A DNA stretch of 64,000 nucleotides from positions 1,960 through 65,959 of the forward strand of contig JACRKF010000033.1 in the NCBI GenBank assembly GCA_016219865.1. Reading direction: 5' to 3'. Below are positions 1 to 12,600 of the stretch, piece after piece. The position numbers were made by a program, and so were the translations under genes. The notes under the pieces were generated by a model. The model saw nothing but the letters and a program-made list of their open reading frames with translations, was not told the origin of the DNA and ran no database searches. The stretch is from Candidatus Woesearchaeota archaeon. GTDB taxonomy: Archaea > Nanobdellota > Nanobdellia > Woesearchaeales > DSVV01. How positions within the stretch are numbered: position 1 is the stretch's first letter; each line of letters starts with the position of its first letter.

Positions 1-2
1 TG

Positions 3-3000
3 ATTGGGCAGGCAGGAGAATTTGATTTCTCAGCCTCGCAATGTTTAAAATCATTAAAAGAAGAACAGATTGAAACAATATTAATCAATCCAAACATTGC
101 TACTATCCAGACTAGCGAAGGTATGGCTGATAGAATTTACTTTTTACCAATCACGCCATATTTTGTTGAGAAAATTATTGAAAAAGAAACTCCTGATGGA
201 ATTCTTCTCAGCTTTGGAGGGCAAACTGCATTAAATTGCGGCTTAGCTTTAGATAAGGCTGGAGTATTTGCAAGATTTGGTGTTAAAGTGCTTGGTACTC
301 CTGTGCAAAGTATCCGTGATACTGAAGATAGAGAATTATTTGTTAATAGGTTAAATGAAATCAATGTAAAGACAGCAAAAAGTTTTGCTGTTAATAACAT
401 AGCAGCAGCATTAAAAGCTGCGCAGCAAATAGGTTATCCTGTTATGTTGCGGGCAGGATTTTCTCTAGGTGGAAAAGGTTCTGGTGTTGTTTATGATGAA
501 ACAGAATTATTTGAAAGAGCGCAAAAAGCTCTTGCAGGTGTTGAACAAATTCTAATTGAAGAATATCTTGGCGGCTGGAAAGAGATTGAATATGAAGTTG
601 TGCGAGATTGCTATGATAACTGTATTACAGTCTGTAATATGGAAAACTTTGATCCAATGGGTATTCATACAGGAGAAAGCATTGTTGTTGCGCCTTCGCA
701 AACGCTTGATAATGCTGAATACCATCTGTTAAGAGAGATTTCTATAAAAGTTATACGCCACATTGGTATTATTGGCGAATGTAATATTCAATATGCATTG
801 CATCCTGAATCAAGAGAATATAGAGTAATTGAAGTAAACGCAAGACTTTCACGTAGTTCTGCTTTAGCTTCTAAAGCAACAGGTTATCCATTAGCATTTG
901 TTGCTGCAAAATTAGCATTAGGTTATTCATTATTAGATATAAGAAATAATATCACTAAAGTAACAACTGCTTGCTTTGAGCCGGCATTGGATTATATTGT
1001 TATCAAGATTCCGCGCTGGGATTTAAAGAAGTTCAAAGAAGTTGACAAAAGAATAGGCAGTGAAATGAAATCTGTTGGTGAAGTGATGGCAATTGGAAGA
1101 AGTTTTGAAGAAACACTTCAAAAAGCTATCCGTATGTTGAATATTCAAGCAGAAGGCTTATGCTGCAATAATAGTGAGTTTAATAATTTCCAGGATATAA
1201 GAAATGCATTAAAATATCCTACAGATACAAGAATCTTTGCAATTGTTGAGTCAATGAAACAAGGAATTGCAGTTGATGAGATTGCGCTTTTGACAGGAAT
1301 TGATAAATTTTTTCTCTATAAGATAAGGAACATTATTGATATGGAAAAAGAATTAAAAGAATTAACTGAAACAGCTTTAACTGAAACAACTTTGATGCAA
1401 TTAACTCCAGAATTATTATTAGAAGCAAAAAAGCTTGGATTTAGCGATAAACAAATTGGAATATTGCTGCATAAAGAAGAGTCAGAGATTCGCGAGCATA
1501 GACTGCAGCATAACATTATGCCATTCATCAAACAAATAGATACTCTGGCTGCTGAATATCCAGCGCAAACCAATTATCTTTATTTAACGTATAATGCTGC
1601 TGAGCATGATATTATATTTAGCTCCGAATTGCAAAATTCTCAGAATAATAATTCCATTATTATGTTAGGCAGCGGAGCATACAGGATAGGTTCAAGTGTT
1701 GAATTTGATTGGTGTTGTGTAAGCTGTGTAAAAGCATTGAAAAAAGCAGGAAAAAAAACAATTATGATCAATTGCAATCCTGAAACAGTCTCAACAGATT
1801 ATGATGAATGTGACAGGCTTTATTTTGAAGAATTAACTTTAGAAACAGTGTTGCAGATTAATTATTTTGAAAAGCCGTTTGGTATTGTAATTTCTATGGG
1901 CGGGCAGATACCAAACAATTTAGCTATGGATCTTCATAAGAACAATATAAAATTATTAGGAACAGATGCAATAGATATTGATTGCGCTGAAAACAGATAT
2001 AGATTTTCAGCATTGCTTGACAGTTTGGAGATTGAACAGCCGCAATGGATTGAGACAGCATCAATTAGTGAAGCTAAAAGATTTGCAGAAGCAGTTGGTT
2101 ATCCAATCTTAATCAGGCCAAGCTATGTATTAAGTGGCGCTGCAATGAATGTATTATATAATGAAGAACTTCTTGATTTTTATCTTCGAGAAGCAGTAGC
2201 ATTAAATCCAAAACATCCTGTTGTGATAACAAAGTTTATTGAACATGCAAAAGAGATTGAGATTGATGCTGTTGCGCAGAGAGGAGAGATTATTATTTTT
2301 GCAATAAGCGAGCATATTGAACATGCAGGAGTGCATTCAGGCGATGCAACAATGGTATTGCCATGCCAAAAGATTTATGTTGAGACATCCAAAAGAATTG
2401 AGGATTATGCGCGCAAGATTGCAAAAGCATTGTCAATAACAGGACCATTTAATATTCAATTTCTTGCTCAGGATAATTATGTCAAAGTGATTGAATGTAA
2501 TCTCAGAGCATCGCGAAGTTTTCCATTTTGTTCAAAAGTAACGAATTATAATTTCGTGGATATTGCTGCAAAAGCAATGCTTAATGAAACAGTAGAACCT
2601 GTTGGAGATGCGGCAAAAAATCTAAATTATGTTGGTGTAAAAGCAGCGCAGTTTTCATTTTCTCGGCTTAAAAATACAGATCCAATTGTTGGAGTAGAAA
2701 TGCGTTCAACTGGAGAAGTAGCATGTTTTGGCAATGATCTTGATGAAGCATTATTAAAATCATTAGTTGCAACTGGATTCTCAATACCGCAAAAAAGCAT
2801 TTTAGTAAGCATTTCTGGAGATAAAAACAGATTCAGGCTGATTAATGAACTGCGAAGATTATATGATAATGGATATTTATTGTATGCAACTGAGCACACT
2901 TCAGCATTTTTGACAGCAAATGGGATTGCAAATTACAGACTTTATAAGATAAAAGATAAGATTGAACCAAATGTTTTAAGTTATCTTCAGCAAAGAAAGA

Positions 3001-3224
3001 TTGATCTTGTTATTAGCATGCAGGATGAAAATAACGGAGAAATAAAGACAGATAGTTTTATTATTCGAAGAACTGCAATTGATTTTTCTGTGCCTTTGAT
3101 TAATAATGTGCAGCTGGCAAAAGCTATTGTTGATGCAATACTTCGGAAAAAGCAAGAAGAATTGCTGCCATTGGCATTAGATGAGTATGTTCCTAAGAGA
3201 ATTTTGCAAAGCAAAATTCTCTAA
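3..3224 (+). CDS. carB: Carbamoyl-phosphate synthase large subunit, 5'-partial (frame continues upstream of the window: IGQAGEFDFSASQ... precedes the first Met)
   Basis: 1033+ aa with two ATP-grasp halves and full CarB-like architecture. Upstream in-frame translation from nt 3 (GQAGEFDYSG-like motif) shows the ORF start lies outside the window. Confidence 0.9.
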   Translation: MGQAGEFDFSASQCLKSLKEEQIETILINPNIATIQTSEGMADRIYFLPITPYFVEKIIEKETPDGILLSFGGQTALNCGLALDKAGVFARFGVKVLGTPVQSIRDTEDRELFVNRLNEINVKTAKSFAVNNIAAALKAAQQIGYPVMLRAGFSLGGKGSGVVYDETELFERAQKALAGVEQILIEEYLGGWKEIEYEVVRDCYDNCITVCNMENFDPMGIHTGESIVVAPSQTLDNAEYHLLREISIKVIRHIGIIGECNIQYALHPESREYRVIEVNARLSRSSALASKATGYPLAFVAAKLALGYSLLDIRNNITKVTTACFEPALDYIVIKIPRWDLKKFKEVDKRIGSEMKSVGEVMAIGRSFEETLQKAIRMLNIQAEGLCCNNSEFNNFQDIRNALKYPTDTRIFAIVESMKQGIAVDEIALLTGIDKFFLYKIRNIIDMEKELKELTETALTETTLMQLTPELLLEAKKLGFSDKQIGILLHKEESEIREHRLQHNIMPFIKQIDTLAAEYPAQTNYLYLTYNAAEHDIIFSSELQNSQNNNSIIMLGSGAYRIGSSVEFDWCCVSCVKALKKAGKKTIMINCNPETVSTDYDECDRLYFEELTLETVLQINYFEKPFGIVISMGGQIPNNLAMDLHKNNIKLLGTDAIDIDCAENRYRFSALLDSLEIEQPQWIETASISEAKRFAEAVGYPILIRPSYVLSGAAMNVLYNEELLDFYLREAVALNPKHPVVITKFIEHAKEIEIDAVAQRGEIIIFAISEHIEHAGVHSGDATMVLPCQKIYVETSKRIEDYARKIAKALSITGPFNIQFLAQDNYVKVIECNLRASRSFPFCSKVTNYNFVDIAAKAMLNETVEPVGDAAKNLNYVGVKAAQFSFSRLKNTDPIVGVEMRSTGEVACFGNDLDEALLKSLVATGFSIPQKSILVSISGDKNRFRLINELRRLYDNGYLLYATEHTSAFLTANGIANYRLYKIKDKIEPNVLSYLQQRKIDLVISMQDENNGEIKTDSFIIRRTAIDFSVPLINNVQLAKAIVDAILRKKQEELLPLALDEYVPKRILQSKIL
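3197..3221. repeat. Perfect palindrome GAGAATTTTGC-AAA-GCAAAATTCTC (copy a), overlapping the last codons and stop of carB
   Basis: Read directly: 11-bp arms, 3-nt loop. Confidence 0.8.
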
Positions 3225-3265: not shown

Positions 3266-4671
<1,406 letters not shown>

Positions 4672-4723: not shown

Positions 4724-5698
4724 ATGAATAACAGCAACAACAACAACTATCACAATAATAATAATAATTTCAAGACTTCAATTGCAGGATTTAAATTGCA
4801 AAACTATTTCTTCAATGCATCTGGTCCCAGGTGTATGACTATTGATGAATTAACATCTTTAGGTGAATCACAAAGTAGTGTGATATTATCAAAATCATGC
4901 ACATTGCTTCCAAGAGAAGGAAATCCTGAACCAAGGTATTGTGACTTGCCCCATGGTTCAATAAATTCAATGGGTCTGCCAAATCTTGGTTATCAGAAAT
5001 ATGGTGAATTTGCTCCATTATTAAAGAAATATAACAAACCTTATTTTGTAAGTGTTTCAGGTTTAAGCTTAGCTGATAATATTAAGATTATCTCTGATTT
5101 ATCAGATATTCAGGAGATAGCTGCATTTGAATTAAATCTTTCATGTCCCAATGTTATAGGCAAGCCGCAAGTTGGCTATGATTTTAATCAAACAAGACAA
5201 GTATTAGGTGAAGTCATGAGAATAACTAAAAAGCCATTAGGTGTAAAACTGCCTCCTTATTTTGATTTTGCGCATTTTGAAGAGATGGCAAAGATATTAA
5301 ATAATCATAAAATCTCTTTTGTCAGCTGTATTAATTCATTGGGTAATGGATTATTTATTGATGCTGACAGTGAAAAAGCAGTAATAAAACCAAAAGGTGG
5401 ATTTGGAGGTTTAGGTGGAGAATATGTTAAACCTACTGCATTGGCAAATGTAAGAAAATTTTATGAATTGCTGCGAAAAGATATTGCAATCATCGGCGTC
5501 GGCGGCATTGCAACTGGAAGAGATGCATTTGAATTTTTATTATGTGGAGCAAGCGCAGCGCAAGTTGGAACAGCATATCAGCAGCAAGGAACAGCTGTAT
5601 TTGCGCGGCTTGAGAAAGAATTTGCAGCTTTTTTAGAGAAAAAAGGCTGCCATAGTCTTGATGAAGTGAAAGGAAAATTAAAAACTATAAATAATTAA
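4724..5698 (+). CDS. pyrD: Dihydroorotate dehydrogenase (class 1 type), with an unusual poly-Asn N-terminus
   Basis: NASGP..., GLPN(L)G and SCPN motifs of class 1 DHODH. N-terminus is MNNSNNNNYHNNNNNF. Confidence 0.85.
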   Translation: MNNSNNNNYHNNNNNFKTSIAGFKLQNYFFNASGPRCMTIDELTSLGESQSSVILSKSCTLLPREGNPEPRYCDLPHGSINSMGLPNLGYQKYGEFAPLLKKYNKPYFVSVSGLSLADNIKIISDLSDIQEIAAFELNLSCPNVIGKPQVGYDFNQTRQVLGEVMRITKKPLGVKLPPYFDFAHFEEMAKILNNHKISFVSCINSLGNGLFIDADSEKAVIKPKGGFGGLGGEYVKPTALANVRKFYELLRKDIAIIGVGGIATGRDAFEFLLCGASAAQVGTAYQQQGTAVFARLEKEFAAFLEKKGCHSLDEVKGKLKTINN

Positions 5699-5724: not shown

Positions 5725-7674
5725 ATGTATGACGCAAGATTATTGTTGGAAAATTGCAATATTGTAAATAAGGACGGAACATTCTCTCAAAAAAACATTT
5801 TTATTGAGGATGGAAAGATTGCAAAAATAGAAAGCAGCGCTTTTGTCAATACTGTCTCTTACAAGACAATTGATTGTGCTGGAAAATTAGTATTGCCTGG
5901 ATTAATTGATTGTCATGTGCATTTTCGTGATCCAGGTTTTCCAGAGAAAGAAGATTTCTTGTCAGGAAGTTCTGCAGCAGCAGCAGGAGGAGTAACTTCA
6001 ATTTTAGAGATGCCAAATACAGCTCCAGCAACATTCACAAGAGCATTGCTTGGGCAAAAGAGACATATTGCAAGCCATAAAAGTCTAGTTAATTATGGAT
6101 TCTATATTGGAGCTGGAAATGATAATCTTGAAGAATTAAATATGGCAGAGAACATTGCTGGAATTAAAATATACATGAATCTTACAACAGGACAATTATT
6201 GATTGATGATGATGCTCATTTAAAAAAGATATTCTCCCTAAATAATAAATTATTTGCAGTGCATGCTGAAGGAGAAACATTTGCAAAAGCATTATCTATG
6301 TTTCACGAAAATAACGAAAATAACTCCTCTAGACTATACTTATGCCATGCTTCTTTGCAATCAGAGATAGAAATAATTAGAAAAGAGAAACTAACTGGGA
6401 AAAAAGTCTATGCTGAAGTCTGTCCTCATCATTTATTGTTCACAAAAGAAAATGATTTAGAAAGATTAAACGGCTATGCTATAATGAAGCCAGCATTAGC
6501 AACAGCAACTGACAGAAACTCTTTATGGGCGGCAATTAACGATGGTGCAATTGATATGCTTGCAACAGATCATGCGCCGCATACACGAGCAGAAAAGAAT
6601 AATAATAAACCTGCATTTGGTGTAATTGGTGTTGAATTATTATTGTCATTGGCATTGACATGGTATCATGAAGGAAGATTAACTCTTAGAAGAATAATGG
6701 AATTATGCTGCGAAAATCCTGCAAGGATTTTCGGAATAAAAAACAAAGGTTTTTTAGCAGAAGGCTATGATGCGGATATTGTTGTTATTGATTTAGACGC
6801 TGAGAAGATTGTTAATGATGAATTATTATTTTCAAAAGCAAAAGGTTCTCCGTACAATGGCATGAAACTTAAAGGATTGCCTGTGATAACAATCGTCAAT
6901 GGAAATATTGTTTTTGCTGATGGTATGATTAATGATTCTTATAGGGGAAAAGAATTAATGTTTGGACAGGGTGAAACTATGGCGCAAGATGATTTAGAAA
7001 GTAATGTTAGTGAATCTGTTGCTGTTGGAGAGGACATTACTGAGAAGGTTGCAGAAATTTTATTGGACACAAAAGCAGTGATTGTTAATGCAGAAAAACC
7101 ATATAAATATGCATCAGGAATATTAAGTCCAATTTATTGTGATAATAGGATTGTATTATCCTATCCAGACAAACGAAAGATGGTAGTTGAAAGTTTTTTA
7201 GCATTAATTGAACGAGAAGATATTCAGTATGATGTTATAGCTGGAGTTGCAACAGCTGGAATTCCTTGGGCAGCAATGATTGCAAACAAACTTGACAAGC
7301 CATTAATCTATGTTCGAACAGAGAAGAAAGAGCATGGCAAGCAGAATGCAATTGAAGGAAACCTTGAGATTGGCCAACGCGTGCTGGTTGTTGAAGATTT
7401 AATTTCTACAGGTGGAAGCAGTTTGCAAGCAGTGCAGCATATCAGAAATGCACAAGGGATTGTTGACCATTGTGTTGCAGTCATGAATTATGAATTTGAA
7501 GAAAGCAGAAATAGATTTAATGAGAATGGCTGTACTTTATTGACATTGACTAACTTTTCAGTGCTTAGTAAAATTGTATTAGATAAGAAATATATAGATC
7601 AAGCTGCTTATGATAAAGTAAAAGAGTGGAATTTAATGCCAAAAGAATGGGGGAAAAAGCATGGGTTTGAATAA
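5725..7674 (+). CDS. pyrC: Fused dihydroorotase (N-terminus) / orotate phosphoribosyltransferase (C-terminus)
   Basis: N-terminal DCHVHFRDPG and ATDHAPH (DHOase metal ligands). C-terminal VLVVEDLISTGGS PRPP-binding motif of PyrE. The two halves are joined by an acidic linker to give a single 649-aa ORF. Confidence 0.85.
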   Translation: MYDARLLLENCNIVNKDGTFSQKNIFIEDGKIAKIESSAFVNTVSYKTIDCAGKLVLPGLIDCHVHFRDPGFPEKEDFLSGSSAAAAGGVTSILEMPNTAPATFTRALLGQKRHIASHKSLVNYGFYIGAGNDNLEELNMAENIAGIKIYMNLTTGQLLIDDDAHLKKIFSLNNKLFAVHAEGETFAKALSMFHENNENNSSRLYLCHASLQSEIEIIRKEKLTGKKVYAEVCPHHLLFTKENDLERLNGYAIMKPALATATDRNSLWAAINDGAIDMLATDHAPHTRAEKNNNKPAFGVIGVELLLSLALTWYHEGRLTLRRIMELCCENPARIFGIKNKGFLAEGYDADIVVIDLDAEKIVNDELLFSKAKGSPYNGMKLKGLPVITIVNGNIVFADGMINDSYRGKELMFGQGETMAQDDLESNVSESVAVGEDITEKVAEILLDTKAVIVNAEKPYKYASGILSPIYCDNRIVLSYPDKRKMVVESFLALIEREDIQYDVIAGVATAGIPWAAMIANKLDKPLIYVRTEKKEHGKQNAIEGNLEIGQRVLVVEDLISTGGSSLQAVQHIRNAQGIVDHCVAVMNYEFEESRNRFNENGCTLLTLTNFSVLSKIVLDKKYIDQAAYDKVKEWNLMPKEWGKKHGFE

Positions 7675-7718: not shown

Positions 7719-8594
7719 ATGAATAAAGAAGAGTCATACATCGAACAACTAACACAATTAGCGCAACAAAGAAAAAGCATTATCTGCGTTGGATTGGATC
7801 CAGATATTGAAAAAATTCCTTTACAGGGAAATTTAGAGCAAGTTATAACTAAATTCTGCGCAAATATTCTGCAAGCAATGATTGATGAGAATGTAACACC
7901 TGCAATAGTCAAGCCAAATTATGCATTTTATTTTCAGCATGGTTTTGAAGGATTAAAAGCATTGCAGAATATTATTGGATTTTGCCGCCAGAATAATATT
8001 CCTGTAATTTTAGATGCAAAAGTTGGTGATATTAAGAAAACAGCGCAAGCTTATGCAAAAGGAATATTTGGCTGGTTAAATGCAGATGCTGTTACAGTCA
8101 ATGCTTACATGGGATCAGATGTGTTAGCGCCTTTTCTCCCTTATTGTAATAAAGGAAAAGGAATCTATGGTTTATTAAAAACTTCAAATGAAAGTTCTGG
8201 AGAATTGCAGGATTTAGAATTAAAAGACAGCAGAAAAGTATATGAAGCTGCTGCTGGCATTCTTGCAAAAAATTATGTTGATGGGAATTTTCCGATTGGT
8301 TCAATTGGCGGAGTAATTGGAGCTACTTATCCTGCGCAGCTTAAGCAATTGAATGATTATTTTACTTCCAGAAATCTTGTTCTGCCATTATTAATCCCAG
8401 GAGTAGGCGGACAAGGAGGATCTGCTGGAGAAGTTGTTCAAGCGCTAGGCGGAAAGAAAAATAAGAATATTTGGACGCACAGAATCAATGTTTCATCTGG
8501 ATTTACTGAAGCTTATTTAAAATACAAGACAGATGATTATGCTGGCGCAGCTGTCAAAGAATTGAAGAAGTTGAATAAAGAAGTGATATTATGA
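7719..8594 (+). CDS. pyrF: Orotidine-5'-phosphate decarboxylase (long type 2 form)
   Basis: ICVGLDPD and ILDAKVGDI motifs; 291 aa. Confidence 0.85.
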   Translation: MNKEESYIEQLTQLAQQRKSIICVGLDPDIEKIPLQGNLEQVITKFCANILQAMIDENVTPAIVKPNYAFYFQHGFEGLKALQNIIGFCRQNNIPVILDAKVGDIKKTAQAYAKGIFGWLNADAVTVNAYMGSDVLAPFLPYCNKGKGIYGLLKTSNESSGELQDLELKDSRKVYEAAAGILAKNYVDGNFPIGSIGGVIGATYPAQLKQLNDYFTSRNLVLPLLIPGVGGQGGSAGEVVQALGGKKNKNIWTHRINVSSGFTEAYLKYKTDDYAGAAVKELKKLNKEVIL

Positions 8595-8839
8595 AAATAG
8601 GAATTGTCTTAAGCGCAGCTGATCCAGAAATTGTCTGGAATGCTTTACGATTTGGAAATACAGGATTACAATCACAGCATACTGTAAAGATATTCCTAAT
8701 AAATAAAGGAAAGATACTTGCTTGCGGAACTTGTTTAAAATCACGACAAAAAGAAGGAAGTAATATTTGTCCGCTATCAACAATGAAAGATTTATTAAGA
8801 CTGGTTGAAGAATCTGATAAAGTGCTGACATTTGGTTAG
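8591..8839 (+). CDS. DsrE/DsrF(YchN)-like small protein, truncated 82-aa form
   Basis: ATGA overlap with pyrF. MKIGIVLSAADPE...ACGTCLKSR...DKVLTFG matches the DsrE-family pattern (Cys in a CG[TS] motif and a C-terminal D+vitf). Confidence 0.5.
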   Translation: MKIGIVLSAADPEIVWNALRFGNTGLQSQHTVKIFLINKGKILACGTCLKSRQKEGSNICPLSTMKDLLRLVEESDKVLTFG

Positions 8840-8880: not shown

Positions 8881-11800
8881 TCATCCCCTGCCATACACCA
8901 AACTGTAACTATTCTTGCTAGGTCTTATCTCATATCCTTCTCCAGGTTCAAAGCAGGCAAAGTTTCCTGACCATAGTCCTGTTGTTGCGCTATATTGCGC
9001 ATATTCATATCTTGCAGATGTTGTGTTGTAATGATAAATTCTATCACCTGTTGCAGGATTTGCAGGAGAAACGAAAATTGCTGAGAAATTGCATTGTTGT
9101 ATTGCAGAGTAATAACCAAACATATTTATTTCAGCAGAGGTTGTATTCCCCGCAGCATTTGTTGAAGCTGCAATCGAAGTTGTATAATTGTTTAATGGAA
9201 CTTCTCCAACTAATGTGATATTATATGCAGTTGCAACAGGAGAAAATGCATAGGATCTTCCATATTCAAATAAAGTAAAATCGCCAAGCCATCCAGAACC
9301 TGTAAAAAACTGTGAAAGCATTGCTGTTTTTGAAGTTGTATTATAAGAATAAATAATATCATTCTCTGAAGCAGAAGTTAAATTAGAAATATTAAGATCA
9401 TTGACAGTAATAGGCAATGAAATAAGATTCAATTGTATTCCCGCAGTTGGATTGCCAGCTGCTGCTTTAATTAATACATTGAATTTTGCAGCAGTAATAT
9501 TTGTTAGATTATAATTTGTGCCATTTGCTGCAGCAACACGATAAAATCTCTTGTCAACATCTCTTGCATCATTATCTATGTAATATAATTGTGCTGCTGC
9601 GCTTATTGTTGCATTTGCTGTCGGAAGCGCTGCAGCAGAGAGATTGAGGACATAGGATGCATTCTCTGAAAAAAATAATTTATACTGAGAAGCATCTTTA
9701 GCTGAATCCCAAGATATATTAATTGAGTTATTTGCAAGCTTTTTGATTGTAAGATTGCCAGGCATAAATGGTTTGACATCTGTTGAATTAAATATTGTTG
9801 TTGTATTTGCTGCTGTTTGATTGATAAAATTAGTTTCATTGCATATAATATTGTAATTATATGTTGCAGCTCCAACAAATGTTCTGTTGTATTCAAACAA
9901 TGCTTTTGTTGCATTATACATCATATTCGCAGTCACATCTGTAAACTGGATGCTGCAATTTGCAGTAGTAATTGGTGTTTTTGAAGTCACATTTGTGTAA
10001 TTTGCAAAAAAGTTTGCTATTTGATTTTCATATGTTGCGCCAAGACGATAAGGCGCAGCATCTTGCGTTGAATCCCAAGTAATTAATGAAGCATTTTCTC
10101 GTGCAGTAATATTAGCTAATCCTATTGTATAAAAAGTAAGATTTGTTGCAGTTGCTGTAATTATTGTGCAGCCATCCGCGGCAGAATTGCAAACAGAACC
10201 ATTTTTCATAGGCACTGGATTTGCATAGCCGGTATTGTATAATGAAAATGTTATGTTGCTATTTAATGTGCTGTGCAGATGTGAATTATTAAACAGGATA
10301 TTATTCCTGCTGATGTTTGCATTTTTATCAAAATCTTGAAATGCAGCAACCGCAAAATCATTAAATATTATTTTCCCATTCGATGTATTCTCAAGAATAA
10401 AGTAGGATGTATTATATAATGATGGAATAACAAGTGGATTTGATGTTATTCCATTAAATGTGTTTATTTGTGGTGAAGCATTTAATCCAGCAGAGATTAC
10501 TAATGAAAATGGCTGTGAACCTTGAGCAATATTATACGCTGAGACATTAACTTGATAACTTCCAGTTTGTGTATTGTTAGTATTAATAATAACCTGCTCA
10601 ACTGTATTTCTATCATCTGAGGACGCATTAAATGGAAATAAAAAGTTATTGCCAAGAAATTGCGTTCCATTTGGTGCTGTTGCAATCAGATTAAGATCAT
10701 TCACTAATGAAATTGCTGCATTTGCTGTTCCTTTGTAATCTGTCCAGACTAAAGTTATTTTTATTGGAGTTGATGCATTAACAACTGTAAAATTGTAAGT
10801 TGAAGATTGACCTGTTGTCAATTCAGTGCTATTATCAATATACACAAGATATCTTGATCCTGATGGAATTAATGTATTAGTCATATTTACTCTGCCCCAT
10901 CCGCTTGTATTGCTTGGAAATCCATAGCTTAGCTCTTGGGCGCCATTAATTAGTGTTGCTTTAAGCAATGCTCCAGAAACATTATTGTAGAATTTGTTGA
11001 GCATGAAATCCTGACGCAACAACACAAGCATGCCTGCTGCAGAAGGTGTTGCCATGCTTGTGCCTGAGCAAGTAGAATAATTGCCATTTGAAGAAAATGC
11101 GGAATTGCAAGATGGACTTCCTGAGCTGATTACAGTTGATTTTGTTGAAACAACATTTGTGCCAATTACAACAACATCTGGTTTTGTCCTGTTATCAGCA
11201 GCTGGTCCAAGACTGCTTGTCGATGAGATTAAAGCAGGATTTCCTGAACTTCTGCTGCTTTGAAGGTTGCCAACAGAAACTGCATTTTTCGCAGTTGCTG
11301 GATAAAATACTGTGTTTGCGCCAGAACCGCCAGAATTTCCTGCTGCAACAATTAATAATGCATCTTTTCTGTTCCACATAAAATCATCAACAGTTACAGC
11401 TAGTGATTCATACGCATTAGTATCGCCGCCATAACTATTGCTATGCACTCTAGCGCCATCTAAATATTGATTATGAAGAATTGTTTTATATGTTGATGTT
11501 GTTCCTAAATAAATTGATCGTGAACCATCATCATCACCTGCTGCATAGAATGAGATATTGGCAGCATATGCCATTCCTTTAAATTGACCAGCAGATAATG
11601 TGCCATTTCCAGCAGCAGATCCTGTTACGTGCGTGCCATGGCCATTTAAATCATTTGGTGAAGAACAACTAGCGCCGCTTAATGCGCAAACTGTATTGTT
11701 AGTTTTAATATTGACAATACGATTATCAAAATCCAGCAAGATATCATTTAATACAGAAAGATTATCAACACCAGTATCTAAACCAGTATCTAGTATGCCA

Positions 11801-12600
11801 ATCACTTGGTTTTTTCCATTAAGATTAAGAAAATTCCATACAGGAACAACCTCATGAGTTTGCGCAACCAAATCATTCAATACATGCACTGGTGAAGGAG
11901 CATCAATAATCTGAACTTCATCAACAGCAGAAATTTGTTGAATATTCTCTTGCGCAGTTTTTATTCGTATTACTTCATTATCAGCAGCTATTATCTCTAA
12001 ACCATTAACCTCTTTTAATTTTTCTGCAACTAATGCTGAATTTCCATCTTCATAAAGATAAAGATCAAGTGTAACTTTATTATTTTTGTCTGGAACAATT
12101 GTTGCAATTGTTTCTGTGTTCAATTTATACTCTGGGTTGTAGTCAATTATTGCTTTTACAAATTCAAATGTTTGTATTTTGTTTAAGTTTACTGTTGGTA
12201 TTTTCACAATAAATGAATTCTGGGGAATATATGAATATATTTTAACATCATATGTTTCCAATGCCTTTTTCCATGAATCTCTAACAGGACCGGCAAATTG
12301 AAGAACATAAAAAGCTTCGCTTTTATAAAAGACTTCCTCGCTGCGCTCGTCGTCTTTTATTTCATTAATAATTAGCGGTTGCTGTTTTTGTTGTTCAGTA
12401 ATTGTCTGCGATTTAAAATAAATATTAGCATCAGCTTTTTTATATTCTTCTGGATGATATTCAGTAAGTGCTGTTTTAACAGCATTATATTGCTTTATTT
12501 CTTGTTTATACGCAAAAGAGAATAAACTAATTATAGTTATAAGTAATAGAACTGCAACTATTGCTGCTAACCCAACTTTTTTCATAATAAAATCATTCAT
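8881..12600 (-). CDS. Secreted subtilisin-like serine protease (peptidase S8) with a very long Asn/Thr/Ser-rich C-terminal stalk
   Basis: N-terminal signal anchor. Catalytic triad motifs VIGILDTGLD (Asp), HGTHVTGSAAG (His), GTSMATPSAAGMLVLL (Ser) and oxyanion AAGNSGG. The ~700 C-terminal residues carry dozens of N-x-S/T sequons. Confidence 0.85.
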   Translation of the reverse strand: MNDFIMKKVGLAAIVAVLLLITIISLFSFAYKQEIKQYNAVKTALTEYHPEEYKKADANIYFKSQTITEQQKQQPLIINEIKDDERSEEVFYKSEAFYVLQFAGPVRDSWKKALETYDVKIYSYIPQNSFIVKIPTVNLNKIQTFEFVKAIIDYNPEYKLNTETIATIVPDKNNKVTLDLYLYEDGNSALVAEKLKEVNGLEIIAADNEVIRIKTAQENIQQISAVDEVQIIDAPSPVHVLNDLVAQTHEVVPVWNFLNLNGKNQVIGILDTGLDTGVDNLSVLNDILLDFDNRIVNIKTNNTVCALSGASCSSPNDLNGHGTHVTGSAAGNGTLSAGQFKGMAYAANISFYAAGDDDGSRSIYLGTTSTYKTILHNQYLDGARVHSNSYGGDTNAYESLAVTVDDFMWNRKDALLIVAAGNSGGSGANTVFYPATAKNAVSVGNLQSSRSSGNPALISSTSSLGPAADNRTKPDVVVIGTNVVSTKSTVISSGSPSCNSAFSSNGNYSTCSGTSMATPSAAGMLVLLRQDFMLNKFYNNVSGALLKATLINGAQELSYGFPSNTSGWGRVNMTNTLIPSGSRYLVYIDNSTELTTGQSSTYNFTVVNASTPIKITLVWTDYKGTANAAISLVNDLNLIATAPNGTQFLGNNFLFPFNASSDDRNTVEQVIINTNNTQTGSYQVNVSAYNIAQGSQPFSLVISAGLNASPQINTFNGITSNPLVIPSLYNTSYFILENTSNGKIIFNDFAVAAFQDFDKNANISRNNILFNNSHLHSTLNSNITFSLYNTGYANPVPMKNGSVCNSAADGCTIITATATNLTFYTIGLANITARENASLITWDSTQDAAPYRLGATYENQIANFFANYTNVTSKTPITTANCSIQFTDVTANMMYNATKALFEYNRTFVGAATYNYNIICNETNFINQTAANTTTIFNSTDVKPFMPGNLTIKKLANNSINISWDSAKDASQYKLFFSENASYVLNLSAAALPTANATISAAAQLYYIDNDARDVDKRFYRVAAANGTNYNLTNITAAKFNVLIKAAAGNPTAGIQLNLISLPITVNDLNISNLTSASENDIIYSYNTTSKTAMLSQFFTGSGWLGDFTLFEYGRSYAFSPVATAYNITLVGEVPLNNYTTSIAASTNAAGNTTSAEINMFGYYSAIQQCNFSAIFVSPANPATGDRIYHYNTTSARYEYAQYSATTGLWSGNFACFEPGEGYEIRPSKNSYSLVYGRG

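Follow-up and report, generated by a model that had tools for sequence, protein, structure and literature searches.

Multi-enzyme proteins are a familiar feature of pyrimidine biosynthesis, and two of them are textbook cases of gene fusion: CAD, which joins carbamoyl-phosphate synthetase (CPSase), aspartate carbamoyltransferase (ATCase) and dihydroorotase (DHOase) in animals, and the uridine monophosphate (UMP) synthase of animals and plants (UMPS), which joins orotate phosphoribosyltransferase (OPRT) to orotidine 5'-monophosphate (OMP) decarboxylase (OMPDC). An earlier note on the DNA described here named these two as the known fusions; the list is correct but incomplete, as a bacterial bifunctional PyrF-PyrE protein is also catalogued (NF004034). 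The subject of this analysis is another combination of pathway enzymes, a fusion of pyrC to pyrE that places a DHOase (step 3 of UMP synthesis) and an OPRT (step 5) on a single polypeptide. It lies in a 64,000-nucleotide stretch, hereafter the window, of contig JACRKF010000033.1 (assembly GCA_016219865.1, positions 1,960 to 65,959) from a Candidatus Woesearchaeota archaeon. The gene very probably encodes a genuine bifunctional DHOase-OPRT enzyme with a single origin in a small clade of Woesearchaeota, formed through the loss of a stop codon between overlapping pyrC and pyrE genes.

The two genes are joined, as the earlier note had claimed, in one uninterrupted open reading frame (ORF) containing a complete DHOase and a complete OPRT (Table 1). 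The catalytic signatures that it had quoted are present with their catalytic positions kept, DCHVHFRDPG at aa 62-71 and TDHAPH at aa 281-286 in the first half and VLVVEDLISTGGS at aa 553-565 in the second, while Pfam recognises Amidohydro_1 at aa 55-396 (1.7e-29) and Pribosyltran at aa 485-578 (1.3e-13). The intervening linker is acidic, again as described (QGETMAQDDLESNVSESVAVGED, with 7 acidic and no basic residues), and pyrD, which encodes step 4, does form an ORF of its own upstream. The fusion protein is 100% identical to NCBI entry MBI5392998.1, from a Candidatus Woesearchaeota archaeon metagenome-assembled genome (MAG; 190-kb contig), where it is named only "orotate phosphoribosyltransferase". 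The GC content is even across the fusion gene (0.32-0.37); on this ground, and on the conserved synteny described below, a chimeric assembly was considered and rejected.

Table 1. Coordinates of the pyrC::pyrE fusion gene, its parts and the neighbouring pyrimidine genes within the window.
Feature	Position	Strand	Remarks
pyrC::pyrE fusion gene	5725..7674	+	single ORF, 649 aa plus stop; ATG start, no internal stop
Dihydroorotase domain, CAD-like or archaeal type with carboxylated-Lys position	5725..6963	+	aa 1-413
Linker, acidic, variable, predicted disordered	6964..7032	+	aa 414-436, 23 aa
Orotate phosphoribosyltransferase domain	7033..7671	+	aa 437-649
Internal GGTGA-N4-ATG (Met420)	6970..6981	+	within linker
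carB, carbamoyl-phosphate synthase large chain	1..3224	+	cut by window start; frame 3 open from base 3; matches carB N-terminus of related locus L007
pyrB and pyrI, aspartate carbamoyltransferase catalytic and regulatory chains	3281..4671	+	pyrB 3281-4198, pyrI 4195-4671; Pfam OTCace_N/OTCace, PyrI/PyrI_C
pyrD, class 1A dihydroorotate dehydrogenase (step 4)	4724..5698	+	separate gene, 26 nt upstream of fusion
pyrF, OMP decarboxylase (step 6)	7719..8594	+	separate gene; TIGR02127 215 bits, cut-off 110.6

The N-terminal half would catalyse the conversion of carbamoyl-aspartate to dihydroorotate, judging from its family membership and its residues. Its 415 residues pass the cut-off of TIGR00857 (pyrC_multi; 293.1 bits against 279.05), and the best NCBIfam matches are DHOase equivalogs, several of them at 300-410 bits, with allantoinase and hydantoinase ranking behind them. 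Over aa 54-402 there is an end-to-end alignment to the human CAD DHOase domain (6e-59), and archaeal and bacterial DHOases also align. The positions H64, H66, R68, N98, K148, H180, C207, H208, E231, D282 and H286 do not vary among the five fusions of the same domain order and are conserved in 50-61 of 61 stand-alone relatives; the binuclear-metal ligands (H64, H66, K148, H180, H208 and D282), together with R68, N98 and H286, are kept in all five fusions and in 61/61 of the stand-alone proteins, the carboxylated-lysine position K148 having been assigned by motif comparison with CAD. In an AlphaFold2 model the predicted local distance difference test (pLDDT) score of this domain is above 90, and its Foldseek matches are DHOases and related cyclic amidohydrolases (TMt up to 0.94), with values of 0.85-0.92 for solved DHOases (2gwn and 7uof both 0.85) and 0.91-0.94 for CAD DHOase. 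No match spanning both domains was found among the Foldseek matches listed, the longest of which covers about 485 alignment columns.

The C-terminal half would likewise be expected to carry out step 5, the formation of OMP from orotate and phosphoribosyl pyrophosphate (PRPP). Residues 426-649 alone (224 residues) score 141.1 bits against the TIGR00336 pyrE cut-off of 106.8, and the domain matches the solved Firmicutes OPRTs 3dez, 3m3h and 2aee with E-values of 3e-46 to 3e-43. As in these structures, the PRPP motif (E557, D558 and T562-S565) and the catalytic flexible loop RTEKKEHGKQ (R531, K535, H537, G538 and K539) are kept; SPIYCDNR is conserved too. Two features could be taken to mean that this half has decayed. 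The score against the NF001729 equivalog is 190 bits, below its cut-off of 245, and residue 467, which by motif we take to be the equivalent of Lys26 of Salmonella OPRT, is leucine instead of lysine. However, leucine is also the majority residue at this position (43/61) in the closest stand-alone OPRTs, because of which it is read as a trait of the lineage, as judged from the alignment, and not as decay of the fused copy; the stand-alone proteins carrying it include the pyrE products of two unfused Woesearchaeota loci (L014 and L015), which are the sole pyrE of their operons and fall equally short of NF001729.

Inactive DHOase-like proteins and regulatory proteins of phosphoribosyltransferase (PRT) fold exist in the pyrimidine pathway. 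On this precedent one of the two domains here might be inactive and provide a scaffold or a means of regulation instead, in the manner of the DHOase-like domain found in yeast Ura2, of PyrC' in the Pseudomonas ATCase or of PRT-fold sensors like PyrR, an explanation to which Leu467 and the NF001729 shortfall could lend support. We consider it highly improbable, and rejected it on residue conservation and on the pattern of selection: every metal ligand and substrate-binding residue of the DHOase is invariant, and so are the PRPP motif and catalytic loop of the OPRT, the OPRT domain passes TIGR00336, and no second pyrC or pyrE was found in the pyr operon inside the window. The ratio of nonsynonymous to synonymous substitution (dN/dS; Nei-Gojobori, against relatives of 79% and 63% identity) is 0.11-0.18 for the DHOase domain, 0.07-0.15 for the OPRT domain and 0.6-1.7 for the linker, synonymous divergence of 1.2-2.0 being near saturation and the ratios hence rough and indicative only. 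Both domains are thus under purifying selection, and the linker is not. The fusion is real and conserved, and its enzyme is probably active.

Of the explanations offered by the earlier note, that of a sequencing frameshift did not survive comparison with relatives, in which it had suggested looking for the same fusion. DHOase followed by OPRT on one chain is present in at least five sequence lineages, at 54-100% identity, from independent NCBI, JGI and Logan assemblies. Apart from the window itself, these are represented by full-length proteins, one of 79% identity (P0002) in two NCBI MAGs (RIFCSPHIGHO2_02_FULL_32_12 and UBA10200) and four Logan/ENA contigs, one of 75% from JGI (P0003), one of 63% in two JGI samples (P0004) and one of 54% from Logan (P0005), with in-frame junctions; a partial protein of about 41% identity (P0149) also spans the junction. 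Full-length matches were seen in two Woesearchaeota MAGs. It is therefore scarcely credible that pyrC and pyrE are truly separate here and that an indel has erased a stop codon in this one assembly. A single indel could indeed join two genes that overlap in unfused relatives, and one assembly of the P0002 species (a 105-kb contig) does contain a frameshift in its fusion gene, giving products of 389 aa and 269 aa, which shows that the gene can be broken or mis-assembled. However, that break falls inside the DHOase domain (SPYNW|...) and not at the junction, the in-frame junction recurs in these diverged lineages across at least nine assemblies, which come from different pipelines and whose linkers differ in both length and sequence, and the linker of the window amounts to 23 extra in-frame codons, beyond what a one-base slip yields.

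The surroundings of the fusion are shared as well. The locus of one same-order relative (L007) reads carA-NUDIX-NUDIX-carB-pyrB-pyrI-pyrD-[pyrC::pyrE]-pyrF and is followed by a convergent S8 peptidase gene, matching the synteny of the window, whose own convergent ORF is a presumed S8 peptidase; a second (L018) retains pyrD next to the fusion, and a class 1A dihydroorotate dehydrogenase (DHODH) gene stands upstream of every same-order fusion locus examined. The two NUDIX hydrolase genes between carA and carB of L007 (1187-2260), together with a NUDIX-DHOase fusion found elsewhere (P0250, 610 aa), suggest that the association of NUDIX proteins with these pyr operons recurs.

DHOase and OPRT on one chain is nevertheless a rare arrangement: when 1.84 billion cluster representatives were searched exhaustively with HMMER, the best 150 matches showed it only in P0004, in two proteins of different architecture (P0008 and P0121) and in the fragment P0149. 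Domain-sized searches, with the OPRT alone or with a profile of the junction, added only P0149, a 293-aa match that is possibly another fragment (P0392), tandem OPRTs and OPRT-OMPDC proteins, and did not list the known full-length fusions, apparently owing to a length filter. A metagenome scan, for which the patterns were generic N-terminal DHOase ones only, yielded distant stand-alone DHOases and no new fusion.

The five same-order fusions share a single origin. On a neighbour-joining tree of DHOase domains (58 sequences, 399 columns, 100 bootstraps) they form one clade with a bootstrap value of 99, and with their common synteny this bears out the suggestion that the fusion is a lineage marker. 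Its likely starting point can be seen in the unfused Woesearchaeota loci, three of which (L014, L015 and L016) have the order pyrB-pyrI-pyrD-pyrK-pyrC-pyrE-pyrF, with a class 1B pyrD, and the fourth of which (L017) has pyrB-pyrI-pyrC-pyrE-OMPDC, with no pyrD in the operon. In 4/4 of these loci pyrC and pyrE are adjacent and overlapping; the overlap is 4 nt (ATGA) in L016, 23 nt in L014 and 8 nt in each of L015 and L017. The end of the unfused pyrC product (...GKEVEFG*) resembles GKELMFG at aa 408-414 of the fusion protein, just before the linker, and the start of the unfused pyrE product (MKEEIAGILL...) resembles ITEKVAEILL from aa 437. Because the two genes adjoin and overlap by 4-23 nt in unfused relatives, the fusion most likely arose by loss of the stop codon between them, the simplest route. 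By this route an ancestral operon with adjacent, overlapping pyrC and pyrE would have lost the pyrC stop codon once, in the ancestor of the small Woesearchaeota clade, bringing the two frames into register as one chain, and the linker would afterwards have drifted and expanded in length and sequence. The same clade appears also to have exchanged its type of DHODH, since the unfused Woesearchaeota relatives use a class 1B enzyme plus pyrK, whereas the pyrD of the window is of class 1A.

The length of the linker ranges from about 12 to about 30 residues among the five aligned fusions, its sequence is variable and it is in frame every time. The AlphaFold2 model, built from a 127-sequence alignment, has a mean pLDDT of 93.7 and a predicted template modelling (pTM) score of 0.73, with pLDDT below 50 only at aa 419-435, and the linker is accordingly predicted to be disordered. 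One element in it deserves separate consideration, the GGTGA-N4-ATG at Met420, which may be a relic of the ribosome-binding site and start of the ancestral pyrE, or a start site that could still be used. If this motif had been retained in a working state, the gene would have two products, the full-length fusion and a free OPRT translated from Met420. The core and spacing are exactly those found before pyrB, pyrD and pyrF, and the site is kept in L007 (63% protein identity; GGTGAaaatATG) within a linker otherwise unconserved. By contrast, it has been lost from L006 and L018, and a working site would presuppose the use of Shine-Dalgarno sequences by this organism. Moreover, the motif occurs 9 times in the window against an expectation of 1.1, and as three of the nine, the Met420 site included, are in-frame codings of G-E-x-M and can arise from coding alone, the site is treated only as a lead; such a dual output seems unlikely.

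The points that weigh against a conserved enzyme active as one bifunctional chain may be gathered here. The putative ribosome-binding site and ATG at Met420 could permit separate translation of the OPRT, the gene is frameshifted in one assembly of a related species, the substitution ratios suffer from the near saturation noted above, and the activity of both halves is deduced from sequence. As to what such an enzyme would do, the flexible acidic linker would tether DHOase and OPRT, and the main effect of the fusion would be to guarantee that the enzymes of steps 3 and 5 are co-expressed at 1:1 and kept in the same place, with step 4 supplied by the separate class 1A DHODH encoded directly upstream. 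Stand-alone enzymes of the DHOase and OPRT families are homodimers, and a linker of this length should let both dimer interfaces form. The earlier note had also raised substrate channelling. As no intermediate is common to steps 3 and 5, the two joined active sites would not be expected to pass a substrate directly from one to the other; a physical complex with PyrD, or channelling through one, is speculative.

Other fusions of the late pyrimidine enzymes in uncultured relatives bear on this question. A 1007-aa protein, P0008, combines DHOase, class 1A DHODH and OPRT, i.e. steps 3, 4 and 5 in pathway order, and is known from seven contigs from JGI, NCBI (GCA_964527395.1) and Logan; its gene lies in the order pyrB-pyrI-[fusion]-pyrF-carA-carB (L001, 8001-11024; also L002-L004). 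In L009 (3855-7569; also L010 and L011), a 647-aa protein of reversed order, OPRT-DHOase (P0006), is followed with an 8-nt overlap by a gene for a 592-aa DHODH(1A)-OMPDC protein, so that two bifunctional proteins cover the four late steps, the pair of steps on each being non-consecutive. P0007 (639 aa; L012, 4605-7956) fuses DHOase to a different OPRT subfamily and adjoins a gene for an OPRT-like-OMPDC protein, with no pyrD in the locus, and its closest relative, P0009, is unfused. Further combinations are a DHOase-OPRT'-OMPDC protein of 1079 aa (P0121), a DHOase-DHODH(1B)-PyrK protein of 968 aa (P0134) and a DHOase-DHODH protein of 778 aa (P0166). Because their DHOase domains fall outside the window clade on the tree, the fusions in P0006, P0007, P0008 and P0121 are, by this sequence comparison, events independent of the one described here. 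P0134 and P0166 likewise lie elsewhere on the tree, and the DHOase-DHODH-PyrK and DHODH-OMPDC fusions too are counted as independent. Tandem OPRT-OPRT proteins of about 420-450 aa are also fairly common among the matches (L014, 9193-10521; P0142, P0148 and P0388-P0394), and one of them takes the pyrE slot in an otherwise unfused Woesearchaeota pyr operon.

All of the fusions found join products of genes that are neighbours in the operon, and the choice of partner tracks this adjacency and not the order of steps in the pathway. The pattern speaks for co-expression or the assembly of a complex more than for direct channelling. A more ambitious proposal is that the enzymes of the four final steps of UMP synthesis (DHOase, class 1A DHODH, OPRT and OMPDC) form one complex in Woesearchaeota and neighbouring uncultured lineages. 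The DHOase-OPRT protein would associate with the dimeric class 1A DHODH, and perhaps also with OMPDC, dihydroorotate and orotate would be handed on between adjacent active sites, and the fusions of relatives would be "Rosetta stone" traces of the association. The triple fusion in pathway order, the pairing of OPRT-DHOase with DHODH(1A)-OMPDC from overlapping genes, and the DHOase-OPRT'-OMPDC and DHOase-DHODH-PyrK proteins would all be consistent with it, as would the finding that all OPRT/DHOase fusion loci examined that have a pyrD encode a class 1A DHODH, where unfused relatives have class 1B plus PyrK. There is also a precedent in the pyrimidinosome, a pyrimidine-synthesis metabolon with channelled flux reported for human cells (PMC12508449), of which the archaeal complex would be a prokaryotic counterpart. 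However, the partners match adjacency, C with E and D with F, which neutral or mildly beneficial stop loss in compact overlapping operons predicts without any channelling; the two steps joined in the window have no intermediate in common; the disordered linker and the pTM score give no sign of a fixed interdomain geometry; and the class 1A correlation involves a handful of loci, with L012 having a fusion and no pyrD nearby. Such a complex is a tentative possibility and on balance doubtful. Were it to exist, the independent fusions (C-E, E-C, C-D-E, D-F and C-E'-F) would be evolutionary snapshots of it, and would provide natural single-chain scaffolds on which to study the channelling of dihydroorotate and orotate.

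The order of the pyr operon in the window is carB-pyrB-pyrI-pyrD-[pyrC::pyrE]-pyrF, and as a de novo pyrimidine operon it is complete, with carB cut by the window start; an apparent N-terminal truncation of carB, an impression gained from the list of ORFs, was rejected as the gene simply runs off the start of the window. The pyrD product is assigned by Pfam DHO_dh (2.9e-77) and by NF002702, "dihydroorotate oxidase" (443 bits against a cut-off of 301), and has an Asn-rich N-terminus, MNNSNNNNYHNNNNNF. Downstream, an 82-aa ORF (8591-8839) overlaps the pyrF stop codon (ATGA) and has a match to DsrE/DsrF (PF02635, 1.1e-05) that covers no more than the C-terminal portion of that family; from this partial match it could be either a truncated gene or a small DsrE-like protein. 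It is followed on the opposite strand by a 1239-aa ORF (8881-12600) convergent to the operon. As a large S8 peptidase gene (PF00082) holds the same place 3' of the pyr genes in L007, L012 and L017, this ORF is presumably an S8 peptidase by synteny. Rfam and tRNA scans of the window gave no matches.

The fusion has a practical consequence for annotation. Because the NCBI name is "orotate phosphoribosyltransferase" only, and because one MAG has only the 276-aa C-terminal product annotated, pathway reconstruction based on names can record pyrC as absent, and so mistake these DPANN archaea, with their small, reduced genomes, for pyrimidine auxotrophs. The MAG in question is UBA10200, in which the fused ORF is intact (L005, DUGA01000023.1, 7439-9442) and the annotated OPRT begins at an internal Met; public annotation of the fusion is inconsistent (entries P0480 and P0482-P0484). 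For systematics, the fusion is a clean shared derived character of a Woesearchaeota subclade. Its biological weight is moderate, because it is most simply explained by stop-codon loss between overlapping operon neighbours; alongside the triple DHOase-DHODH-OPRT protein and the other fusions, it nonetheless offers natural constructs with which to test the physical association of late pyrimidine enzymes in prokaryotes.

Full-text literature searches found no description of a DHOase-OPRT fusion, and the only fusion mentioned in the Undinarchaeota paper is priS-priL. Set beside the unfused PyrC and PyrE of Woesearchaeota (L014-L017), the window has the same position in the operon and the same order of pyrC then pyrE; identity is about 46-51% between its DHOase domain and the nearest stand-alone DHOases, and about 45-58% between its OPRT domain and the nearest stand-alone OPRTs. 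It differs in having one gene in place of two overlapping ones, and a class 1A pyrD where L014-L016 have class 1B with pyrK. The proteins P0006, P0007, P0008 and P0121 also unite DHOase and OPRT in a single protein encoded in a pyr operon, but with another domain order, inserted domains or a different OPRT subfamily. With UMPS and the bacterial PyrF-PyrE, the window shares the placement of OPRT on a bifunctional pyrimidine chain. The matches of its OPRT domain to the UMPS structures 3qw4 and 2wns and to NF004034 are weaker, and its partner is DHOase where theirs is OMPDC, of which no domain is present in the 649-aa protein; they join steps 5 and 6, whereas this fusion joins the non-consecutive steps 3 and 5. 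With CAD it has in common a DHOase embedded in a multi-enzyme polypeptide, and by motif both keep the His pair of HVH, the Cys-His pair, DHAPH and the carboxylated-lysine position (AGIKIYMN in one, AGLKLYLN in the other), the two DHOase folds superposing with a Foldseek TMt of 0.91 and a root-mean-square deviation of 1.6. By contrast, CAD joins the consecutive steps 1, 2 and 3, while in the window DHOase is joined to step 5, and carB, pyrB and pyrI are separate ORFs, so that the arrangement is not of CAD type. Taken singly, the domains are typical of the DHOase and OPRT families, except at the position equivalent to Lys26, and their union is, apparently, a modest and previously undescribed variation on the multifunctional polypeptides of the pyrimidine pathway.

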